Translations under genes and position numbers: made by a program
Part shown: in pieces, positions 3,677-62,745 of the stretch
Layout: every line of letters begins with the position of its first letter
Position numbering within the stretch: position 1 is the first letter of the stretch
DNA from: a bacterium BMS3Abin15
GTDB taxonomy: Bacteria; Patescibacteriota; Minisyncoccia; Moranbacterales; 2-12-FULL-40-10
Direction: 5' to 3'
Length of the DNA stretch: 64,000 nt
NCBI GenBank assembly: GCA_002923195.1
Contig: BDTH01000035.1
Location: 1,146-65,145, forward strand
The notes under the pieces: generated by a model
Told to the model about the DNA's origin: nothing
Databases searched by the model: none
What the model saw: only the letters and a program-made list of their open reading frames with translations

Positions 3677-4954
3677 ATGAAAATAAGTTTCCATATTACA
3701 GTTCTAACTTTTTTTATTTTACTGCTATCACCAATTAGTGGTGTTTTTGCATCCGAAGAAAATTCCAAGGAATTAAAATTAATGATGGGCGAGTTGGAAG
3801 AAGCTATTTCTTATGAGGAGATTTCTCAATGGACAGTTATTAAAACTACTTTAATGAATGACAAAAACGCAAGGGCAGAAATTGAAAATATTCATTACTG
3901 TCCTACCGATCCTATCTTTTGCAGGTTGACAAAAACCTACCGGGAAAGAAATCATCTTGTAAAAAAGTCCGCGCGCATTGTAGAAAAAAAGGCGCTATAT
4001 TCTTTTTTAGAAGATTTGGGAAGAAGGGTAAATAAAGATCCTGTTGACGCAAAATTTGCAGTAGAAGACGAGAAAGTGTCTGCTTTTGCTTTCAGTAAGA
4101 ATGGAATGGAGCTTGACGTTGGCTCCAGTGCCAAGATATTGCTTGATGCGATTTCGCAAAAAAACCATTCTAATGAAAAGTTTCCGGAAGAAGTACACCT
4201 CGTTTATAAAATCATTGAACCAGAAATAAAATCAGAAGATATTGAAACTTTGGGAATAAATATACTTATCGGGGAAGGTAAGTCTAATTTTAGAGGTTCT
4301 CCGAAAAATAGAGTTCATAACATAAAGGTAGCGTCTAACAGATTCAACGGTGTACTTATAAAACCGGGGGAAGAATTTTCCTTTGTTGAGATCTTAGGTC
4401 CAGTAGATGAAGAGCATGGTTATAAAGAAGAATTGGTTATTAAAAAAGATAAGACTGAGCCGGAATTTGGGGGCGGAGTCTGCCAAGTTTCTACCACCAC
4501 ATTTCGAGCGGCAATTTACAGTGGAATGGAAATCACCGCCCGTCGTAACCACGCTTATCCGGTCGCTTACTATAATCCTCAGGGGATGGACGCAACAGTC
4601 TATATCCCCCGTCCGGATCTCCGTTTCATTAATAACACATCCGGACACGTTTTGATACAGACAAAAGTTGAAGGAACTGAGTTAATTTTTCAATTTTATG
4701 GAACCGACGATGGGAGAAGAATAGAAATAATAGGGCCTCGAATACTGGAAAGGAATCCAGATAATTCAATGAAGGCTACTTTTACACAAAAAGTATATGA
4801 CAAAGATGAAAATTTGATAATTGATGATGTTTTTAACAGCTCTTATGATTCCCCGGATAAATATCCTCATCCTGGAGAAGAAAAATTGACTGAAAAACCA
4901 AAAGAGTGGTCTAAGGGCGAGTGGAGAAGATATAAAAAAGAGCACGGACTATAG
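3677..4954 (+). CDS. VanW-domain protein with N-terminal signal/anchor
   Basis: Hydrophobic N-terminus. VanW-like core GGGVCQVSTTTFRAAIYSGMEITARRNHAY. Confidence 0.75.
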   Translation: MKISFHITVLTFFILLLSPISGVFASEENSKELKLMMGELEEAISYEEISQWTVIKTTLMNDKNARAEIENIHYCPTDPIFCRLTKTYRERNHLVKKSARIVEKKALYSFLEDLGRRVNKDPVDAKFAVEDEKVSAFAFSKNGMELDVGSSAKILLDAISQKNHSNEKFPEEVHLVYKIIEPEIKSEDIETLGINILIGEGKSNFRGSPKNRVHNIKVASNRFNGVLIKPGEEFSFVEILGPVDEEHGYKEELVIKKDKTEPEFGGGVCQVSTTTFRAAIYSGMEITARRNHAYPVAYYNPQGMDATVYIPRPDLRFINNTSGHVLIQTKVEGTELIFQFYGTDDGRRIEIIGPRILERNPDNSMKATFTQKVYDKDENLIIDDVFNSSYDSPDKYPHPGEEKLTEKPKEWSKGEWRRYKKEHGL

Positions 4955-5174: not shown

Positions 5175-5247
5175 GCGCCCATAGCTCAGTCGGTAGAGCA
5201 GTTGCCTCTTAAGCAAACGGTCGTAGGTTCGAATCCTACTGGGCGCA
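5175..5247 (+). tRNA. tRNA-Lys (anticodon CTT)
   Basis: Acceptor gcgccca/tgggcgc, D-arm tagctcagtcggtagagc, anticodon loop ctCTTaa, T-arm ggttcgaatcc. CCA not encoded. Confidence 0.85.
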
Positions 5248-5333
5248 CACTTGCCCCCGTAGTTCCCCGTAAAAATTTTCTTTGAAAATTAACGAGGCAG
5301 GCAACAAATAGAACAGGAATCCTCAATACGTAT

Positions 5334-5405
5334 GTCCTCGTAGTTCAACGGATAGAACAGGAGCCTTCTAAGCTCCGGATGCGGGTTCGATTCCTGCCGA
5401 GGACA
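5334..5405 (+). tRNA. tRNA-Arg (anticodon TCT)
   Basis: Acceptor gtcctcg/cgaggac, anticodon stem ggagc/gctcc with loop ctTCTaa, T-arm gggttcgattcc. Confidence 0.85.
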
Positions 5406-5437
5406 CAAAGTAAAATAAATAAAATGTTTTCCAGGTT

Positions 5438-5480
5438 CCCTGCCCGCCATCGGCTGCGCCGAAGGCGCTGGCAGGCGGGG
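5438..5480. repeat. GC-rich nested palindromic element (outer stem ccctgcccgcc/ggcaggcgggg, inner gcgcc-gaa-ggcgc)
   Basis: Hand-paired imperfect hairpin in the AT-rich tRNA spacer. Shares the cctgcccgc/gcgggcagg-type arms seen at 23897, 38050, 38224, 43091 and 62726. Confidence 0.6.
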
Positions 5481-5636
5481 ACTCCTAGTGAGGGTACAAA
5501 ACTGAATGGTTCGATTTTTACCCCGTACTAAACTGTGCTTTAGTGACGGGGCCTGTCGGGGGTACAAGAAAGCGAAAAGTATAAAGTATAAAATCAAATT
5601 ATTTTTTGTTTTACGCTTTTGGTTTTACGCTTTCAT

Positions 5637-5709
5637 GGCGGGTATAGTTCAATGGCAGAACACTGGTTTGTGGTACCAGGTACGAGGGTCCGATTCCCTC
5701 TACTCGCCC
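5637..5709 (+). tRNA. tRNA-His (anticodon GTG)
   Basis: Acceptor ggcgggt/actcgcc, anticodon stem ctggt/accag with loop ttGTGgt, T-arm gagggtccgattccctc. Confidence 0.8.
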
Positions 5710-5717
5710 AGAAAAAC

Positions 5718-5790
5718 GCGCTCGTAGCTCAATGGATAGAGCACTTGGCTTCGGACCAAGGGGTTGTAGGTTCGACTCCTGCCGAGCGCA
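5718..5790 (+). tRNA. tRNA-Arg (anticodon TCG)
   Basis: Acceptor gcgctcg/cgagcgc, anticodon stem cttgg/ccaag with loop ctTCGga, T-arm taggttcgactcctg. Confidence 0.85.
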
Positions 5791-5846
5791 CATTATGCGG
5801 GAGACCAAGAATTCCAGGTTCGATTCCTAGCGAGAGCATAGAAAGC

Positions 5847-19250: not shown

Positions 19251-20273
19251 TTAGATAAAACGCTTTCTTATAATTCTCGACTGTAACTTCTCCGCATTTC
19301 CATGCTTTAGCAAACCTAAATAAGAATCAAGCGTTTTCGGTGCAGAATTTTCTTTTATTCTTTTCATCATCCTTCTTTTTGTTGTTGTCCTTAATATTCT
19401 GTGATCAAAAAAATTCACCCAACCGAGAAAATCAACTCCGGAATAGAGAGTTTCAATGAAAAGCTTATCAGGATGAAGTTCTAATTTCAACCTTTCATAA
19501 AGAAATCTTTTAATTTCTGGGATTAAATCCTTTAGCCATTCTTTGTTTTCCGAAAATATCACAAAATCATCAGCATAACGAATATAATATTTAACTTTTA
19601 ATTTATGTTTAATAAATTGGTCAAATTCATTCATATAAATATTTACGAAGAGTTGCGATGTCAGGTTTCCTAAAGGCAATCCAACATTAATCCTCCTCTC
19701 CTTTTCAAGGAGAGGGCGGGGTGAGGTAAAGCTACTAATAACTTCTCCTAAAAGCCACAATATTTTCTTGTTCGGAATATATCGCGCTAAAATTCCGAGT
19801 AAAATTTTATGGTCAATGCTGGCGAAGAACTTTTTAATATCGCATTTTAAAATCCAGCAAGTTTTTGCATTGTTCTTACTTATAATGTAAGCAAATTTCC
19901 GGAATCTGTTGATAGATTTATGCGTGCCCTTATCTAATCTGCAAGAATATGAATCGGCAATGAATGTTTTGTCAAAAAAGGGGTAAAGTTTTCGGTAAAT
20001 AGCGTGGTGTAATAATCGGTCACGGACAGTGGCTTTATGGATATTTCTCGGTTTGGGATCGGAAATATTAAAAGCTTGATAGCCGCCGTATTTGTAGGTA
20101 TGATTAAGAAGATCATTATGAAGCGAGAAAATATTGTCCATTAAATTCATCTGGAATATCTGCACATCCTTTTTCTGTTTCTTGCCACGCGAAAACTCTT
20201 TCCAGGCTTCTAGTAAATTGTCTAAGGAAATGACTTTATTATAATCTTTCTCAAATTTTACTTTTTCATTCAT
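19251..20273 (-). CDS. DGR-type reverse transcriptase
   Basis: RT motifs including RYADDFVIF (YxDD) and GLPLGNLTSQLFVNIY (the [LIV]GxxxSQ hallmark of DGR RTs). ~340 aa. Start placed at MNEKVKF (ATG 20273); the upstream extension to 20360 reads through a poly-G run. Confidence 0.9.
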   Translation of the reverse strand: MNEKVKFEKDYNKVISLDNLLEAWKEFSRGKKQKKDVQIFQMNLMDNIFSLHNDLLNHTYKYGGYQAFNISDPKPRNIHKATVRDRLLHHAIYRKLYPFFDKTFIADSYSCRLDKGTHKSINRFRKFAYIISKNNAKTCWILKCDIKKFFASIDHKILLGILARYIPNKKILWLLGEVISSFTSPRPLLEKERRINVGLPLGNLTSQLFVNIYMNEFDQFIKHKLKVKYYIRYADDFVIFSENKEWLKDLIPEIKRFLYERLKLELHPDKLFIETLYSGVDFLGWVNFFDHRILRTTTKRRMMKRIKENSAPKTLDSYLGLLKHGNAEKLQSRIIRKRFI

Positions 20274-20391
20274 TATTTTTCTTATTTTTGATATTTGATA
20301 TTTGATTTTTAATTTTCTATTATGACCCCCCCCCAACGGATTACCCGCCGTAATCGCCAAAGAAAAAGAAACTTATCAATTTTGGCTTGTT

Positions 20392-20691
20392 TTGCATCGC
20401 GATTTTCCCAAGACCGAACGCTATGGTTTGGGACGCAGAATTGATAATCTGTTTTTGGAAATCCTTGAGCTAAGTTTCACTGCCGCCTATCTCCCACCGG
20501 AGCATAAAATAATTTTCTTAGGTAAAACTATATCCCGTTTGGATGTTTTAAAATTCTTTCTGCAAACCGCGTGGGAAAATAAGCTCGTTCCTACTGATAA
20601 ATATGCCGAACTTTCTAAAAGATTGGAGGAAATTGGGCGGATGCTCGGCGGATGGAAAAAGGGACTGCAAAAGAAAACTCCCGCTACATAA
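20392..20691 (+). CDS. avd: Avd-like four-helix-bundle protein (23S rRNA IVS protein family), N-terminally interrupted
   Basis: FPKTERYGLGRRIDNLFLEILELS...LDVLKFFLQTAWE...EEIGRMLGGW pattern. The homologous frame continues upstream to 20326. An ATG at 20322 is out of frame by one nt across a C9 run (see findings). Confidence 0.7.
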   Translation: MHRDFPKTERYGLGRRIDNLFLEILELSFTAAYLPPEHKIIFLGKTISRLDVLKFFLQTAWENKLVPTDKYAELSKRLEEIGRMLGGWKKGLQKKTPAT

Positions 20692-20712
20692 GCAGGAGAA
20701 ATACAATAGTTT

Positions 20713-20831
20713 CGGGAGAACACCTGGTTGCCATTGTTCCACTCATTCGGATTCTCAACGGAGCAAGCATCCACGCTCCAGCCGACGCCATCCCAGCTGC
20801 AGCGGACCGTGCTAAGCACACCAGTCGTTCT
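20713..20831 (-). repeat. DGR template repeat (TR)
   Basis: About 115-119 nt match to 21168-21286. This copy carries A (minus strand) at nearly all mismatched positions and contains AAY codons (NPNEWNNGN). Confidence 0.85.
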
Positions 20832-21148
20832 CGTGCAAAAAACCATCCGCGCCACCATCCTTTGAATACTCTCCGGATTGAATCTTATTCGGGACTTCGA
20901 AGTCCGCCAGTTTCTTGCACCAATTCATGTATTTTTTGAAAGAAATTATTTCCATACTCTCGCGTAAGCCTTAACCGACGCAACTCTCGCAAAAATAATC
21001 CCAAAGCCATGACGCAAAAGCCGTAGCCGTTGCGTATCGCATGATTTCGGTTTTATTATATCAAAAATAAAAGACCCCCTCAAACTTCTGCAGATTTTGC
21101 AAAAATTCGAGAGGGTCAAAGTGTCAAAGAATCAAAGATTCAAAAGAT

Positions 21149-21811
21149 CTAAGATTCAGAGGAATTGCGGGAGAACACCTGGCCGCCACTGCTCCACTCA
21201 TACGGACTCCCAAAGGAGCAAGCACCCACGCTCCAGCCGACGCCATCCCAGCCGCAGCGGACCGTGCCAAGCACACCAGTCGGACAGTAAATATAGAAAA
21301 TATTGGCATATCCGTTAGTGAGTAAATCGCCTTTTTCGCCGTTTGGCTGCATTTCCATAAGGGCAAACATTTCAGCGAGGGTGGTTTCCGCTTTTTTGTC
21401 TCCACCCAGTTCGGCGATGATTGGCTTATCAACCGAACTCTTGCGCAATTTGTGATAACGAAGCGTGATTTCTGGAATCACCTCCTCGGTTTTACCAAGG
21501 AAATTTTTCCGGAAATTATCTCCAAGATAGGAAATTTTCACTTTCGCTTTCTTGCTCGTGTCTACGACAAAATGGTCGCGGGCGATGAATTCTTCGGTTG
21601 TCGCAGGGATAGTGACAGTACTGACGAGATCGAGAATATTTTCAGATCTCGGTTCAGTTTCTTGTCTACCTTGAATTGCTCTTATAAAAAGAGCAATTGC
21701 GTCAGTGGTGTTTTGGATAACCCACTGGCCATCTTCCTTTGATAATGGAGCAAGCTTATTTTGGTGCTCCACTAATGATGCTACTAATTTGGGAATCTGT
21801 TGTTCGGTCAT
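21149..21811 (-). CDS. DGR variable (target) protein, 220 aa, VR at extreme C-terminus
   Basis: SD aaggagg upstream of the ATG. C-terminal 40 aa (PTGVLGTVRCGWDGVGWSVGACSFGSPYEWSSGGQVFSRN) are encoded by VR. No signal peptide or TM helix seen. Confidence 0.85.
   Translation of the reverse strand: MTEQQIPKLVASLVEHQNKLAPLSKEDGQWVIQNTTDAIALFIRAIQGRQETEPRSENILDLVSTVTIPATTEEFIARDHFVVDTSKKAKVKISYLGDNFRKNFLGKTEEVIPEITLRYHKLRKSSVDKPIIAELGGDKKAETTLAEMFALMEMQPNGEKGDLLTNGYANIFYIYCPTGVLGTVRCGWDGVGWSVGACSFGSPYEWSSGGQVFSRNSSES
21168..21286 (-). repeat. DGR variable repeat (VR)
   Basis: Cognate of TR. Differs at TR adenine positions (A to G x9, A to T x1 in the 115-nt core). Confidence 0.85.
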
Positions 21812-23207: not shown

Positions 23208-24428
23208 CTAAATCTTAAATTCTATGACATCGCCATCAGCGACTATATATTCTTTCCCCTCTGTTCTCATCCAACCTAACTCCTTGGCCTTTGCCCAAGA
23301 GCCTGCTTCTAATAATTTTTCCCAGTTAATTATATCGGCTCGGATGAATTTTTCCTGGAAATCATTATGAATAGCCATTCCTGCTTCAGGTGCAGTAGAA
23401 TCTTTTTTGACTGTCCAAGCCCGCGTTTCGTCCTCGCCTGTGGTAAGAAATGTAATAAGGCTTAATAATTCATATGATTTCAAAATAAGCTTATTAAGCC
23501 CGGTTTCCAAATTCAATTCTTTTTTTTCTTTTTCCGTCATTTCTCCCATCTCTTCTTCAATTTTAATGTCTAGTTTTACCCCCACACCAAATTTATTTTT
23601 TATAACAATATTATCAGTAGAATAATCCGTATATTTATCTTTAAAATTATCACTTCCGGTAGTATTTTTGGTGTGGGGGTGAATATAACTTTTATTTTCT
23701 AATCCTTTTGGAAGTTTTTCATCAAAATCTGAAATATTGTAGGCATACAAAAATGGCTTCATCGTAAGTAAGGATAATTCATTAACCGCAGCATCAACAA
23801 TTTCATCTTTCATATCAAGCTCTGTTTCATTGGCTAATTTTTCTTCTTCTAATGTTTTTTTAATTTTTTCTGTAATTTCCAGCTTCTTCGCCGCTTCCCC
23901 GCCTGCAACGCTATGCCAGCCCGCAGTAGATACAGCGTTTCTGGCGGGCGTAGCATTGCGGGCAGGTTTGTCATTCCCGCGTGCTTCTTTTTGCAACTTT
24001 TCTATTCTTTTATTTACTGTTTCAAGATCAGCTATTATGAGCTCGGCATTAATAATCTCTATGTCGTTTAAAGGATCTATCTTGTTATGTACGTGGGTAA
24101 TTTTAGAATTCTCAAATACTCTTACCACTTGAATAATAGCATCCACTTCCCGAATGTGAGATAAAAACTTATTTCCCAATCCTTCGCCATCCGCCGCGCC
24201 CTTAACTAGGCCTGCGATATCCACAAATTCAATAACAGTGGGAATTATTTTCTCACTCTTTGACATTTTAGCTAATTTTTCCAAGCGCTCATCCGGAACC
24301 TTCACTACTCCCACATTGGGTTCAATAGTACAGAAGGGATAGTTATTTATATCCACCGGATTATTAGTCAACGCTTTAAATAAAGTAGACTTTCCCACAT
24401 TAGGAAGTCCGACTATTCCAATTTTCAC
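23208..24428 (-). CDS. ychF: ribosome-binding ATPase YchF (Obg-like GTPase family) carrying an in-frame GC-rich insertion
   Basis: [21 protein letters not shown] (GTG start), [10 protein letters not shown]-terminal TGS-like RAWTV...GDVIEFKI. 406 aa. Confidence 0.9.
23897..23966. repeat. nested GC-rich palindromic element inside the ychF coding sequence
   Basis: cccgcctgcaacgct...gcgtagcattgcgggcagg arms nearly identical to the 43091 element, with a second GC palindrome (ccagcccgc...ctggcgggc) in its loop. Translates in frame as [23 protein letters not shown]. Confidence 0.7.
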
Positions 24429-36812: not shown

Positions 36813-37034
36813 TTATCTGCCAGCCAAGAAAACACTTGTAATTGCTAGCAGTATAAAAAGTATAGAAAGAGCAATAGAGAAGTAAAGTAAAAACTTTTCA
36901 AATCCTCTCTTGGTGTAATATCCTCCAAAATCGCCTCCGAAAGCGGCTGAAAGGCCTGATCCGCGATTCTGAAGCAAAATAGAAACAACAAGCAATATTG
37001 AAACAACAGCCTGGGCAATGCTAAGAATTTTCAT
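36813..37034 (-). CDS. secG: preprotein translocase subunit SecG
   Basis: 73 aa, two TM helices, LLQNRGSGLSAAFGG motif. Confidence 0.8.
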   Translation of the reverse strand: MKILSIAQAVVSILLVVSILLQNRGSGLSAAFGGDFGGYYTKRGFEKFLLYFSIALSILFILLAITSVFLAGR

Positions 37035-37301
37035 TATATTTAGAATATCTAAGGTTTATTATTAGCTCAATTTACCAGGTTTCATTCTATCAAAACAACG
37101 AGAAGAAGTCAACCCCGCACTAATTTTGCACCAAATACGCTTTTAATCGGTGCTCTAGCACCAGTGCAAATTTAGTGCGGGGTCAAGTCCAATACGTATA
37201 GAGTATATCATATAAGAATAAGGGTATCAATCACTGACGCTATTGCTCATTTGAATATTTTGTGTTACTATATCACTTTCCAATTAAATGTTAAGCTTAT
37301 A

Positions 37302-37754
37302 ATGGTAATGGCCAATTTAGCTGTAAACAAAAGAGCGAATTTCGACTATAAAGTTCTGGACCGATACGAGGCCGGGATTGTTTTATCTGGGCAGGAAGTA
37401 AAATCTATAAGGGCTGGACAGGCTAGCCTGAAAGGAAGTTTTGTGACCCTAAAAGGCAAAGAGCTATACCTTACTAATACTAGTATCCCTCCCTACAAAC
37501 TAGCCACTAAGCTAGAAGGATACAACCCCACCCAATCGCGCAAGCTATTACTTAAAAAATCAGAAATCAAGTCGCTAATAGGGAAAATGAAAGTTCAGGG
37601 CTTGACACTAGTGCCCATTCGCTTGTATACTAAAAAGCGACTTGTTAAACTAGAATTTTCCGTAGCTCGAGGCAAAAAAGAGTTTGACAAAAGGCAGGAT
37701 ATCGCTAAAAAGGAAGCTAAAAGGAAAGTAGAAAGAAGGCTGAGGACAAATTAA
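37302..37754 (+). CDS. smpB: SsrA-binding protein SmpB
   Basis: NKRANFDYKVLDRYEAGIVLSGQEVKSIR... Start set at an internal ATG (37302 or 37308). Confidence 0.9.
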   Translation: MVMANLAVNKRANFDYKVLDRYEAGIVLSGQEVKSIRAGQASLKGSFVTLKGKELYLTNTSIPPYKLATKLEGYNPTQSRKLLLKKSEIKSLIGKMKVQGLTLVPIRLYTKKRLVKLEFSVARGKKEFDKRQDIAKKEAKRKVERRLRTN

Positions 37755-37757
37755 ACT

Positions 37758-38009
37758 ATGTATTACGTATATGTATTAAAAAGTTTAAAAGATAAGCAGA
37801 TTTACGTTGGTCATTGCAATAATTTAAAGGGTAGAATAAGGGATCATAATCTGGGACTTGTAAAATCTACAAAACCGAGAAGGCCATTAAAGTTGATATA
37901 TTATGAAGCATGTAATTTATTAGAAGATGCCGCAAAGAGAGAAAAGGCATTAAAATCAGGATTTGGAAGAGCATACCTAAAAAGAAGACTGAGCGACTTA
38001 AAAAAATAG
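37758..38009 (+). CDS. stand-alone GIY-YIG nuclease-domain protein, 83 aa
   Basis: YYVYVLKS...IYVGHCNNLKGRIRDHN...REKALK pattern. Wedged between smpB and ssrA. Confidence 0.8.
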   Translation: MYYVYVLKSLKDKQIYVGHCNNLKGRIRDHNLGLVKSTKPRRPLKLIYYEACNLLEDAAKREKALKSGFGRAYLKRRLSDLKK

Positions 38010-38049
38010 ACATTCACTTTCCTTAACGATTCAGCAATGCGAAAGCGGG

Positions 38050-38085
38050 CCCGCCCGCATCGCTACGCGAAGCGTTGCGGGCGGG
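38050..38085. repeat. GC-rich nested hairpin abutting the tmRNA 5' end
   Basis: Perfect 10-bp stem cccgcccgca/tgcgggcggg with an inner acgc-gaa-gcgt hairpin. The 3' arm overlaps the first nt of ssrA. Confidence 0.65.
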
Positions 38086-38521
38086 GGATGCCTAGCTTCG
38101 ACAGGTTGCTCATTTAAAATAAGCAGGTCGACCATTATAGTTGTGTCGTAAAACCATCTATAAAAGTAGATAACTGCAAACATTATCTCAAAGGTAAAAG
38201 CTACATTTGCGCAAGCATTTGCACCCGCCTGCATCGCTGTTGCGTAAGCACTGCGGGCACGGCCAGCTTTTGCTTCTGCTGTTGCTTAATTGCAAACAGC
38301 CATCGAACTGCTAACTCCTAATAGGCAGATCTCGGTGTCAATCATTAGGATAGTTTAAGACATTTTCTTTGGGTGTTTTAAACGAAAGTTTGCCAAAGAC
38401 GAGTAGTAAAAGTTTTTGTTTGTTTTTCATTTTGCCGCTTGTAAAAAATAAATAAACTAAGCTTGTAGATTATTTCATCTGAACAATTTTGGACGCGAGT
38501 GCAATTCTCGCCATCTCCACC
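38084..38521 (+). ncRNA. ssrA: tmRNA (SsrA)
   Basis: 5' GGGGAUGCCUAGCUUCGACAGG pairs with 3' CAUCUCC-ACC (G3:U pair). T-arm GGACGCGAGUGCAAUUCUCGCC. Resume context auaacuGCAAAC. Tag ORF 38176-38247 reads ANIISKVKATFAQAFAPACIAVA*. Adjacent to smpB. Confidence 0.9.
38224..38262. repeat. 39-nt GC-rich palindromic element inside the tmRNA tag reading frame
   Basis: About 29/39 identical (hand alignment) to the 39-nt element in the SpoU gene (43091-43129). Contains the functional tag stop codon. Confidence 0.6.
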
Positions 38522-38570
38522 CTATAAACTCCGACTTTGTATCGGGGTGTGTAATAATTAAACCAAATAT

Positions 38571-39113
38571 ATACGTAGAAGGTTTAGGTACAAAAAGCCG
38601 AAAATAAACACTACCAGATTAAGAGTCAACGAGAATATAAGAACGCCTCGGGTTTTGGTGATTGACGAAAAAGGAAAAAGTCTTGGGGAAATATCCAATA
38701 CAGAGGCCTTGGAAATAGCTAAGGGCCGCGAACTTGATCTTGTTGAGGTTTCTCCAAAGACTCAGCCTCCTGTTTGCCGAATTACAGACTACGGAAAATT
38801 ACAATATCAAAGAAATAAACAGGAGAGAGTATCAAAAACAAAACAGAGGAAAGTAGAAACTAAAGGGATTCGTATTGGCATCCGCACCGATGAACATGAT
38901 ATAGTTTTCAAAAAAAATCAGGCGGAAAAATTTCTAAAAAAGGGTAATAAAGTAAAAATAGAGATACGGCTCAGAGGAAGAGAAAAAGCCCATCAGGATT
39001 TAGCTAGGGAAAGTTTAAATAATTTTACCAAAAGAATAGAGACGCCTTATAGAATTGATGAGGATGTTAAAAAATTCCCTCAGGGATTTAATATAGTAAT
39101 CGCACCAGAATAA
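38571..39113 (+). CDS. infC: translation initiation factor IF-3 (non-canonical start)
   Basis: VNENIRTPRVLVIDEKGKSLGEIS...DLVEVSPKTQPPVCRITDYGK. The frame is open back to 38562 with no ATG. ATA at 38571 is the likely AUU/AUA-type start usual for infC; the exact start is uncertain. Confidence 0.85.
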   Translation: MRRRFRYKKPKINTTRLRVNENIRTPRVLVIDEKGKSLGEISNTEALEIAKGRELDLVEVSPKTQPPVCRITDYGKLQYQRNKQERVSKTKQRKVETKGIRIGIRTDEHDIVFKKNQAEKFLKKGNKVKIEIRLRGREKAHQDLARESLNNFTKRIETPYRIDEDVKKFPQGFNIVIAPE

Positions 39114-42715: not shown

Positions 42716-43246
42716 TTATTTTAATTTACTAGTTATTTCATACCCGACAATTCCAAATGCCACAGAAACGTTAAGAGACTTCTTCTTTCCTCGCATAGGA
42801 ATTTCAACAATTTTGTCACATTTAGCCAGAATTTTTTCATTTACTCCCCTGAGTTCATTGCCAACTATCAGCGCCATAGGAAATGAGAGTCTAAAATTTT
42901 TGTAACCAACGCTTTTTTTGTCCTGTTCTATGGCGACAATTTTTACTCTTTGCGATTTCAGTTTTTCTATTAATTTCCCTAGACTTTTTATTTTCTCCCA
43001 AGAAACATTTTCCTCTGCCCCCAGGGCAGTCTTAGCAATCATTTTATGAGCCCTTGTTAAATATAATGGCTTATTATTACTACCAAGAGGCCCGCCTGCA
43101 ACGCTTGAGCGTAGCGATAGCGGGCAGGGCGTGTAGCCAGTCAGATATATACTGCTAACGCCTATTCCGTCAGCAGTCCTAAAAATCGATCCGACATTAT
43201 AAGCGCTGCGAATATTGTGCAAAACAATGAAAAGCTCTTTTTTCAT
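42716..43246 (-). CDS. SpoU/TrmH-family RNA 2'-O-methyltransferase with an in-frame GC-rich insertion
   Basis: NIRSAYNVGSIFRTADG, LIVGNELRGV, IPMRGKKKSLNVSVAFGI motifs. Confidence 0.8.
   Translation of the reverse strand: MKKELFIVLHNIRSAYNVGSIFRTADGIGVSSIYLTGYTPCPLSLRSSVAGGPLGSNNKPLYLTRAHKMIAKTALGAEENVSWEKIKSLGKLIEKLKSQRVKIVAIEQDKKSVGYKNFRLSFPMALIVGNELRGVNEKILAKCDKIVEIPMRGKKKSLNVSVAFGIVGYEITSKLK
43091..43129. repeat. 39-nt GC-rich palindromic element inside the SpoU/TrmH coding sequence
   Basis: cccgcctgcaacgcttgagcgtagcgatagcgggcaggg. Exactly 13 codons, translated as CPLSLRSSVAGG within the ORF. Confidence 0.7.
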
Positions 43247-62725: not shown

Positions 62726-62745
62726 CCTGCCTGCCGGCAGGCAGG
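62726..62745. repeat. perfect 20-nt GC-rich palindrome cctgcctgccggcaggcagg
   Basis: Self-complementary. Sits in the AT-rich divergent intergenic region. Arms resemble the cctgcc/ggcagg arms of the other GC elements. Confidence 0.6.

Follow-up and report, generated by a model that had tools for sequence, protein, structure and literature searches.

Rickettsia palindromic elements (RPEs), which measure ~100–150 bp and are known only from Rickettsia, are dispersed palindromes that lie in frame in protein genes, where they are translated, and that also occur in structural RNA genes. A passage in Delihas (2008; PMC2229807), citing Ogata et al. (2002), reports RPEs fused into the genes for transfer-messenger RNA (tmRNA) and RNase P RNA. 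Repetitive extragenic palindromes (REPs) are GC-rich imperfect palindromes of 20–40 nt with conserved stem asymmetries, dispersed and at times intragenic (PMC3733652). The tmRNA gene (ssrA) itself is known to be interrupted by group I introns in the T-loop, by circular permutation (two-piece tmRNA), and by genomic islands at its 3′ end, and a few database tmRNAs contain internal stop codons that have been left unexplained (PMC11915505). Here, we describe a 64,000-nt stretch of DNA from the bacterium BMS3Abin15 (contig BDTH01000035.1; the whole stretch is hereafter called the window), the source of which is an uncultured member of the Moranbacteria (Patescibacteria/Candidate Phyla Radiation, CPR). 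In this window, a copy of a short GC-rich repeat has very probably inserted in the single-stranded tag-coding part of the tmRNA gene, such that the proteolysis tag now ends at a stop codon borne by the repeat.

Like RPEs, the repeat family described here has entered both protein genes and structural RNA genes (ychF, a spoU-like gene, argS twice, and tmRNA three times); it is set apart from RPEs by element length (33–41 nt) and by its Moranbacteria host, rather than by sequence comparison. No report of an RPE supplying the stop codon of a tag was present in the literature that we found. The present case also resembles the known ssrA interruptions, in that mobile or rearranging sequence alters the gene and a working-looking tmRNA remains. 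However, the known interruptions are located within the tRNA-like domain or between domains, and they undergo splicing or processing or duplicate the target. The present insertion is instead located in the tag-coding sequence, apparently stays in the RNA, and alters the encoded peptide. A palindromic repeat in a structural RNA gene is already known, but an insertion within the tag-coding sequence that supplies its stop codon appears to be new; in a literature search that covered few subscription-journal papers, such elements were undescribed in Patescibacteria.

The tmRNA gene and the parts of its tag region are as follows.

38084–38522, plus strand: tmRNA gene (ssrA), standard one-piece form.
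38176–38247, plus strand: present tag frame, ANIISKVKATFAQAFAPACIAVA plus UAA, 23 amino acids (translation, with the resume codon placed by Rfam and by relatives' tags).
38224–38262, plus strand: repeat copy D, a 39-nt inserted GC palindrome in the tag open reading frame (ORF) (alignment gaps in relatives; covariance model, 47.4 bits).
38263–38289, plus strand: remnant of the ancestral tag end (PAFASAVA and its UAA), left stranded beyond the first stop (translation; codon-for-codon match to the tag end of the closest relative).
38279–38300, plus strand: native helix 5, the loop of which contains the ancestral stop codon (Rfam structure alignment; fold −9.9 kcal/mol; conserved in relatives).

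The gene was recognized in the initial annotation by its tRNA-like ends and resume context, and is matched over its full length by RF00023 (125.5 bits, where the gathering score is 47; model positions 1–374). The acceptor stem is GGGGAUG/CAUCUCC, with G–U as its third pair (G3–U70, as read from the Rfam alignment), a T-arm is present, and smpB is adjacent. The resume context AUAACUGCAAAC aligns with AUAAuUGCaAAC of the model, and the resume codon is GCA at 38176, as placed by Rfam and by homology with the tags called by ARAGORN in relatives. From there, the frame 38176–38289 translates as ANIISKVKATFAQAFAPACIAVA-stop-ALRARPAFASAVA-stop, so that the two in-frame endings in AVA described in the initial annotation (stops at 38245–38247 and 38287–38289) are borne out. 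The usual arrangement, in which one tag ORF extends from the resume codon as far as a stop in the loop of helix 5, is not seen here: the first stop (38245), which lies in copy D, is encountered 42 nt before the helix 5 stop, and in the tag region the Rfam model passes over 79 unaligned nt, all of them in the unpaired part. The second stop (38287) sits at the canonical position for a tmRNA, inside helix 5, and is therefore the ancestral one.

For comparison, smpB–tmRNA loci of relatives (designated by L numbers) were drawn from GTDB genomes, JGI metagenomes, and a large protein collection combined with contig look-up. The block 38224–38262 is absent from all 34 of the distinct relatives' tmRNAs that were aligned, and its flanks align codon for codon; because CC is present at both junctions, the boundaries of the block are uncertain by 1–2 nt. 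Scans of the genome and JGI metagenome collections with SmpB yielded nothing over ~70% identity, and the closest relative, L190 (a Logan contig from run ERR10503105), was reached through the large protein database and contig look-up. Its SmpB is 84% identical to that of the window and its tmRNA 88.7% identical over shared columns. L190 has an empty site, in which GCATTTGCA directly adjoins CCTGCTTTT (in a second rendering, GCATTTGCA adjoins CCTGCTTTTGCTTCCGCTGTTGCCTAA), and its tag, ANFISKVKATFAQAFAPAFASAVA, is identical at 23 of 24 residues to the window's tag minus the 39 nt. This empty site directly supports the proposal, made in the initial annotation, that an element of a repeat family also found in protein genes interrupted an ancestral tag and now supplies a new IAVA-stop terminus; the lack of the block in the other relatives and the family copies elsewhere in the window and in relatives lend further support. 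Conceptual excision of the 39 nt, likewise put forward there, does restore a tag: after in silico removal of 38224–38262, ARAGORN calls the tmRNA, with the tag ANIISKVKATFAQAFAPAFASAVA. The intact sequence is uncalled, and this failure is because of the insert.

The initial annotation had also considered the reverse, namely, that the hairpin is the native stop-codon helix of the tmRNA and that the dispersed family derives from it, in which case relatives that lack the family should share the hairpin and tag end. Like helix 5, the hairpin of copy D does have a stop codon in its loop, and in one relative (L003) the helix 5 consensus of Rfam is aligned onto a GC element, a superficial likeness. 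Nevertheless, the native helix 5, with the ancestral UAA, is a separate structure downstream of the block and is present in all relatives, whereas the block is present in none, including the 88.7%-identical tmRNA; moreover, the family occurs in genomes that have no such tmRNA hairpin (e.g., L004, L007, L013, and L137). We therefore regard capture in this direction as extremely unlikely.

Short GC-rich repeats can mislead assemblers, and a chimeric join or collapsed repeat, or a binning error, could in principle mimic an insertion. Here, this has a practically negligible probability: the block is found in ten contigs from six sequencing runs belonging to two sample series (three ERZ17422xx assemblies; ENA and Logan assemblies of DRR093003-5), and these products of different assemblers and projects span the tag region and agree base for base over the block and both junctions, with no single-nucleotide polymorphism inside it. 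The ten contigs are all at least 99.7% identical to the window and represent one near-clonal population, and thus add no evolutionary depth. The sole variable site in the tag is 38195 (T/C), by which tag residue 7 is Val or Ala; Ala is the commoner residue at this position in the tags of relatives.

The family to which copy D belongs consists of short (33–41 nt) GC-rich imperfect palindromes with the consensus CCCGCCTGCAnCGCT-loop-AGCnTTGCGGGCAGG, in a window with a G+C content of ~37%. The half-site CCCGCCTGCATCGCT (up to three mismatches) occurs nine times in the window, against 0.46 expected, and none of 100 shuffles reached nine. A covariance model (R1), built from 11 copies, recovers five window copies at E ≤ 0.0013, and a sixth, split copy was recognized by eye. 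Besides copy D, the window copies are as follows.

5439–5479, minus strand: copy A, in the spacer between tRNA-Arg(tct) and tRNA-His (covariance model, 30.4 bits, E 0.0013).
23898–23966, plus strand: copy B, in ychF, formed by an outer copy of 36 nt and, nested in it, an inner copy of 33 nt (sequence and fold; inner copy 41.5 bits).
38050–38085, no strand assigned: copy C, a near-perfect 36-nt GC palindrome forming a leader hairpin that abuts the tmRNA 5′ end with a 2-nt overlap (inverted repeat; 52.5 bits).
43091–43129, plus strand: copy E, in a SpoU/TrmH-family methyltransferase gene that lies on the minus strand (covariance model, 45.1 bits; ORF).

Thus counted, protein genes hold three of the six copies and the tag ORF holds one, the remaining two being intergenic. 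The inner copy of B (~23916–23948) lies on the opposite strand, in the loop of the outer copy; the pair lengthens ychF by 69 nt (23 codons) and keeps its frame, and residues 158–178 of the encoded YchF have no counterpart in YchF of H. influenzae (1jal). Copy E comprises 39 nt (13 in-frame codons, PCPLSLRSSVAGG), around which the Pfam SpoU_methylase match falls into two stretches. Predicted hairpin energies range from −16 to −29 kcal/mol across copies, with copy C at −29.1 kcal/mol (z −5.9). Copy D is identical to the 36-nt master sequence at 33 of 39 positions, with three 1-nt gaps. Copy A stands within a tRNA cluster at 5175–5791 (Lys-ctt, Arg-tct, His-gtg, and Arg-tcg). A perfect 20-nt GC palindrome, CCTGCCTGCCGGCAGGCAGG, at 62726–62745 scores poorly against the family model (15.3 bits, E 0.75); it could be either a minimal hairpin or an unrelated one.

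Outside the window, the model finds ~10 distinct copies in ~0.9 Mb of relatives' loci, chosen around smpB–tmRNA; per base, copies are roughly 10-fold more numerous in the window's genome. In argS, two of the copies from relatives are in frame, at different positions (12 codons in L004 and 11 codons in L007). One 36-mer, CCCGCCTGCAACGCTATGCGTAGCATTGCGGGCAGG, is identical in the outer copy of the window's ychF (inner copy removed), in argS of L004 (3835–3870), and in an intergenic region of L137 (1699–1734), three unrelated loci in three species whose SmpB proteins are just 55–66% identical to that of the window. Such identity suggests recent or lateral spread, or strong sequence constraint, rather than vertical inheritance. 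A scan of IMG/VR with the left half of the element gave 15 matches, all of them non-palindromic chance matches in phage contigs of 48–69% G+C, so that carriage by phage is unsupported.

The block in the tmRNA gene is a multiple of three, and both the downstream frame and the ancestral ending are intact, as might be expected if the insert were removed or bypassed by processing, splicing, or ribosome hopping, with the ancestral 24-residue tag still being made. However, lengths of 33, 36, or 39 nt are a property of the family: all five copies in protein genes, at four insertion sites, have one of these lengths, are in frame, and are free of stops in the host frame, which argues for translation of the copies and not for their removal. 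Rfam searches found no intron-like or ribozyme match, and we know of no self-excision mechanism for a 39-nt hairpin. We consider removal or bypass very unlikely.

The preferred reading, that the repeat is retained in the RNA and terminates the tag, would work as follows. The insertion point is between the codons for AQAFA and those for PAFASAVA. The ribosome would resume at GCA38176, translate the hairpin's 5′ arm into P-A-C-I-A-V-A, and stop at 38245, the UAA lying in or next to the loop of copy D, at its 3′ edge. Trans-translation would end 42 nt earlier than before, and a 23-residue tag, ANIISK(V/A)KATFAQAFAPACIAVA, would replace the ancestral 24-residue tag; the predicted peptide would end in AQAFAPACIAVA instead of APAFASAVA, and the old tag end and helix 5 stop would be left as an untranslated relic. 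The insert is predicted to form a self-contained hairpin, outside pseudoknot 1, helix 5, and every other tmRNA helix, and the tmRNA architecture is otherwise intact. The insertion is probably tolerated because the hairpin extrudes outside the helices and pseudoknots, because it supplies its own stop, and because AVA, the ancestral C-terminus, is within the range of relatives. The tags of 84 relatives, as called by ARAGORN, are 16–26 residues long (e.g., ANFISKVKESFARAFAPSFASALA), and their hydrophobic termini, A-[LIV]-A or VAA, are strongly conserved; six of the 84 end in AVA. A tag of 23 residues lies within this range, and the 37 residues that would result if the first stop were absent lie beyond it. 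The odd ARAGORN tags of L137 and L049 were considered as further interrupted tags, but both align with relatives that have ordinary tags and look like miscalls.

The new stop belongs to the conserved GCGTAGC core of the family, which has TAG in the other copies and TAA in copy D, and is thus derived from the element rather than being an accident of the flank. In the tag frame, the family consensus reads GCT-nnn-GCG followed by TAG or TAA (Ala-x-Ala-stop), and, as judged from this consensus, the element is partly pre-adapted to that frame. The exact sequence GCT GTT GCG TAA requires two features specific to copy D: a loop with GTT (instead of AT or TGA) and one extra A, by which the stop becomes TAA. 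It is identical to the ancestral GCT GTT GCT TAA at 11 of 12 bases, a likeness for which selection after insertion, gene conversion, and chance are all conceivable causes.

These observations also bear on a serious alternative, which concerns whether the block matters rather than what it is: the insertion could be real yet functionally indifferent or mildly harmful, and have been fixed by drift in a small clonal population, with AVA-stop as a by-product of the element and not of selection, and with the tag sequence only weakly constrained since ribosome release is the essential activity of tmRNA. Ala-x-Ala-stop is indeed already given by the family consensus, all assemblies represent the single near-clonal population, and altered tags in Escherichia coli allow ribosome rescue without proteolysis. 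On the other hand, the conserved length and termini of relatives' tags indicate constraint on the tag in this clade, and AVA-stop depends on the two features specific to copy D; copy E, read in the tag frame, would give PACNA-stop. On balance, we consider this alternative rather unlikely.

Several points weigh against the reading in which the repeat-borne stop terminates a working tag and the repeat is a mobile element. Fixation in one near-clonal population (≥99.7% identity) says little about selection. The hairpin of copy D (−16.5 kcal/mol, z −1.7) is weaker than those of the other copies, and 13 of 200 shuffles were as stable. A Pfam scan of 50 ORFs of the window revealed no transposase or other mobilizing gene, a comparison of insertion sites revealed no evident target-site consensus or duplication, and the label 'mobile' would have only the distribution of the copies behind it. 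We infer from sequence that the first stop is used, that the insert is retained in the RNA, and that the new tag is still a degradation signal. The count of ssrA genes is based on 64 kb of the genome, the rest of which may hold a second tmRNA gene.

Two other tmRNAs contain family copies. In L003, a copy occupies the helix 5 loop, four bases past the stop codon, and in L190 a degenerate 41-nt copy occupies the same loop, three bases past the stop. The L190 copy matches the 36-mer at 34 of 41 positions, a pairwise alignment that none of 2000 shuffles equalled in score; the covariance model R1, run on L190–L194, missed this degenerate copy, and its membership of the family consequently rests on the pairwise alignment. 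L191, L193, and L194, which lie phylogenetically between, have neither the L003-type nor the L190-type insertion, which indicates that the three tmRNA insertions (window, L003, and L190) are independent. Among them, only that of the window lies within the tag-coding sequence. In L003 (4715–4751), Rfam places the helix 5 consensus on the GC palindrome, with the true stop region just upstream, and a model-based annotation of the tag end there would be wrong. The L190 tmRNA (4010–4506, 497 nt) is scored by Rfam at 106 bits and is missed by ARAGORN. In addition to the 41-nt family copy in its helix 5 loop, it has two further insertions, and none of the three has a counterpart in the window: the pseudoknot 1 loop contains an additional 30 nt, which form two small hairpins, and another 27 nt are found close to the 3′ side.

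Many relatives, including all five of the closest (L190, L191, L192, L193, and L194), have a hairpin abutting the mature 5′ end of the tmRNA. This leader hairpin is AT-rich, differs from species to species, and uses the first two G of the tmRNA in its basal pairs. In the window, L008, and L005, a GC palindrome takes its place: that of L008 has the 34-nt core of copy C in the opposite orientation (36-nt model match, 52.5 bits), and that of L005 is a degenerate copy. A possible role of the leader hairpin is to protect the upstream smpB transcript at its 3′ end once RNase P has cleaved. We make no claim that copies are statistically enriched at the tmRNA, given that the loci were picked around smpB–tmRNA and that non-coding DNA is scarce in these genomes.

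Together with RPEs, the nearest precedents are the REPs and bacterial interspersed mosaic elements mobilized by REP-associated tyrosine transposases (RAYTs), which the family resembles in size, GC-rich imperfect palindromic form, conserved stem asymmetries, and repetition (six copies in 64 kb); the position of copy C, at the 3′ end of the upstream transcript segment before the tmRNA, is a further likeness. Unlike REPs, the present copies lack the unpaired terminal GTAG/CGTC head (flanks of copies A–E, L003, L004, and L190), GTAG being internal, in GCGTAGC; and whereas REPs are mainly extragenic, about half of the present copies are intragenic and in frame. None of the 50 Pfam-scanned ORFs of the window encodes a RAYT or Y1 transposase. 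Compared with miniature inverted-repeat transposable elements, which have terminal inverted repeats and a target-site duplication, the entire present element is an inverted repeat, the junctions of the window relative to L190 show just the ambiguous CC, and the other copies are without consistent duplication. The GC clusters of yeast mitochondria are also short, GC-rich, palindromic, and mobile in an AT-rich genome, and can be in frame in a coding gene; they differ in belonging to a eukaryotic organelle and in their unrelated sequence, and we know of no RNA-gene or tag context for them.

A wider proposal, which we hold tentatively as possible rather than probable, is that Moranbacteria carry an undescribed class of 33–41-nt, translation-compatible hairpins that spread between species, that the tmRNA is a preferred target or the hairpins have been co-opted as RNA modules (leader hairpin, helix 5 cap, and stop-codon hairpin), and that the loop of copy D was shaped after insertion to recreate GCT GTT GCN TAA. 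More narrowly, the proteolysis tag, usually regarded as a slow-evolving lineage signature, would here have been rewritten in one step by a tiny selfish repeat, in a gene that still looks functional, providing a natural test of the extent to which trans-translation depends on the tag and its stop-codon context. The case would extend the 'protein-coding palindromes' of the Rickettsia type to the CPR, at a much smaller element size, and, given the small genomes and the absence of cultured Moranbacteria, protein and RNA variation arising from such elements may have been overlooked. The case also offers one explanation for database tmRNAs with internal stops, and pipelines reliant on ARAGORN would list the tmRNA as absent from the genomes of both the window and L190. 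We view it as a well-supported case, and a possible lead to an undescribed family of CPR elements, rather than as a new principle.

The neighborhood of the tmRNA gene includes the following genes.

37308–37754, plus strand: smpB (SsrA-binding protein, 148-aa form), intact (ORF list; the exact protein is on record with PF01668; smpB–tmRNA synteny is conserved in relatives).
37758–38009, plus strand: small GIY-YIG nuclease-family gene (83 aa), between smpB and the tmRNA (PF01541 on record).

smpB is 330 nt upstream of the tmRNA, and infC, rpmI, and rplT are downstream; the nearest database SmpB proteins are annotated as Candidatus Moranbacteria. The position of the GIY-YIG gene varies among relatives: the L190 homologue (4601–4846, 46% identity) lies downstream of the tmRNA, between it and infC, and in L193 no such gene is called. 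This gene may be a mobile, free-standing nuclease gene that settles beside the tmRNA. A scan for promoters and terminators around the tmRNA was uninformative, with no terminator-like site, and a low-threshold Rfam search of 37000–38700 left the palindromes unmatched.

A second, unrelated hairpin family (~72–85 nt, AT-rich inside) has terminal inverted repeats like ACCCC(C)GCAC(C/T)AATT, with a window copy at 37112–37183, between secG and smpB. Elements resembling this second family, their kinship judged by eye only, interrupt the tmRNAs of L014 (in the pseudoknot 1 loop) and L109 (in the pseudoknot 3 region). Elsewhere in the window, a diversity-generating retroelement was identified on the minus strand (19251–21811), with a reverse transcriptase (19251–20360; PF00078), a template repeat (20827–20703), and a variable repeat (21282–21158) at the 3′ end of the ORF 21149–21811. 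In an alignment of 125 nt, the two repeats differ at 16 positions, of which 12 are template adenines.

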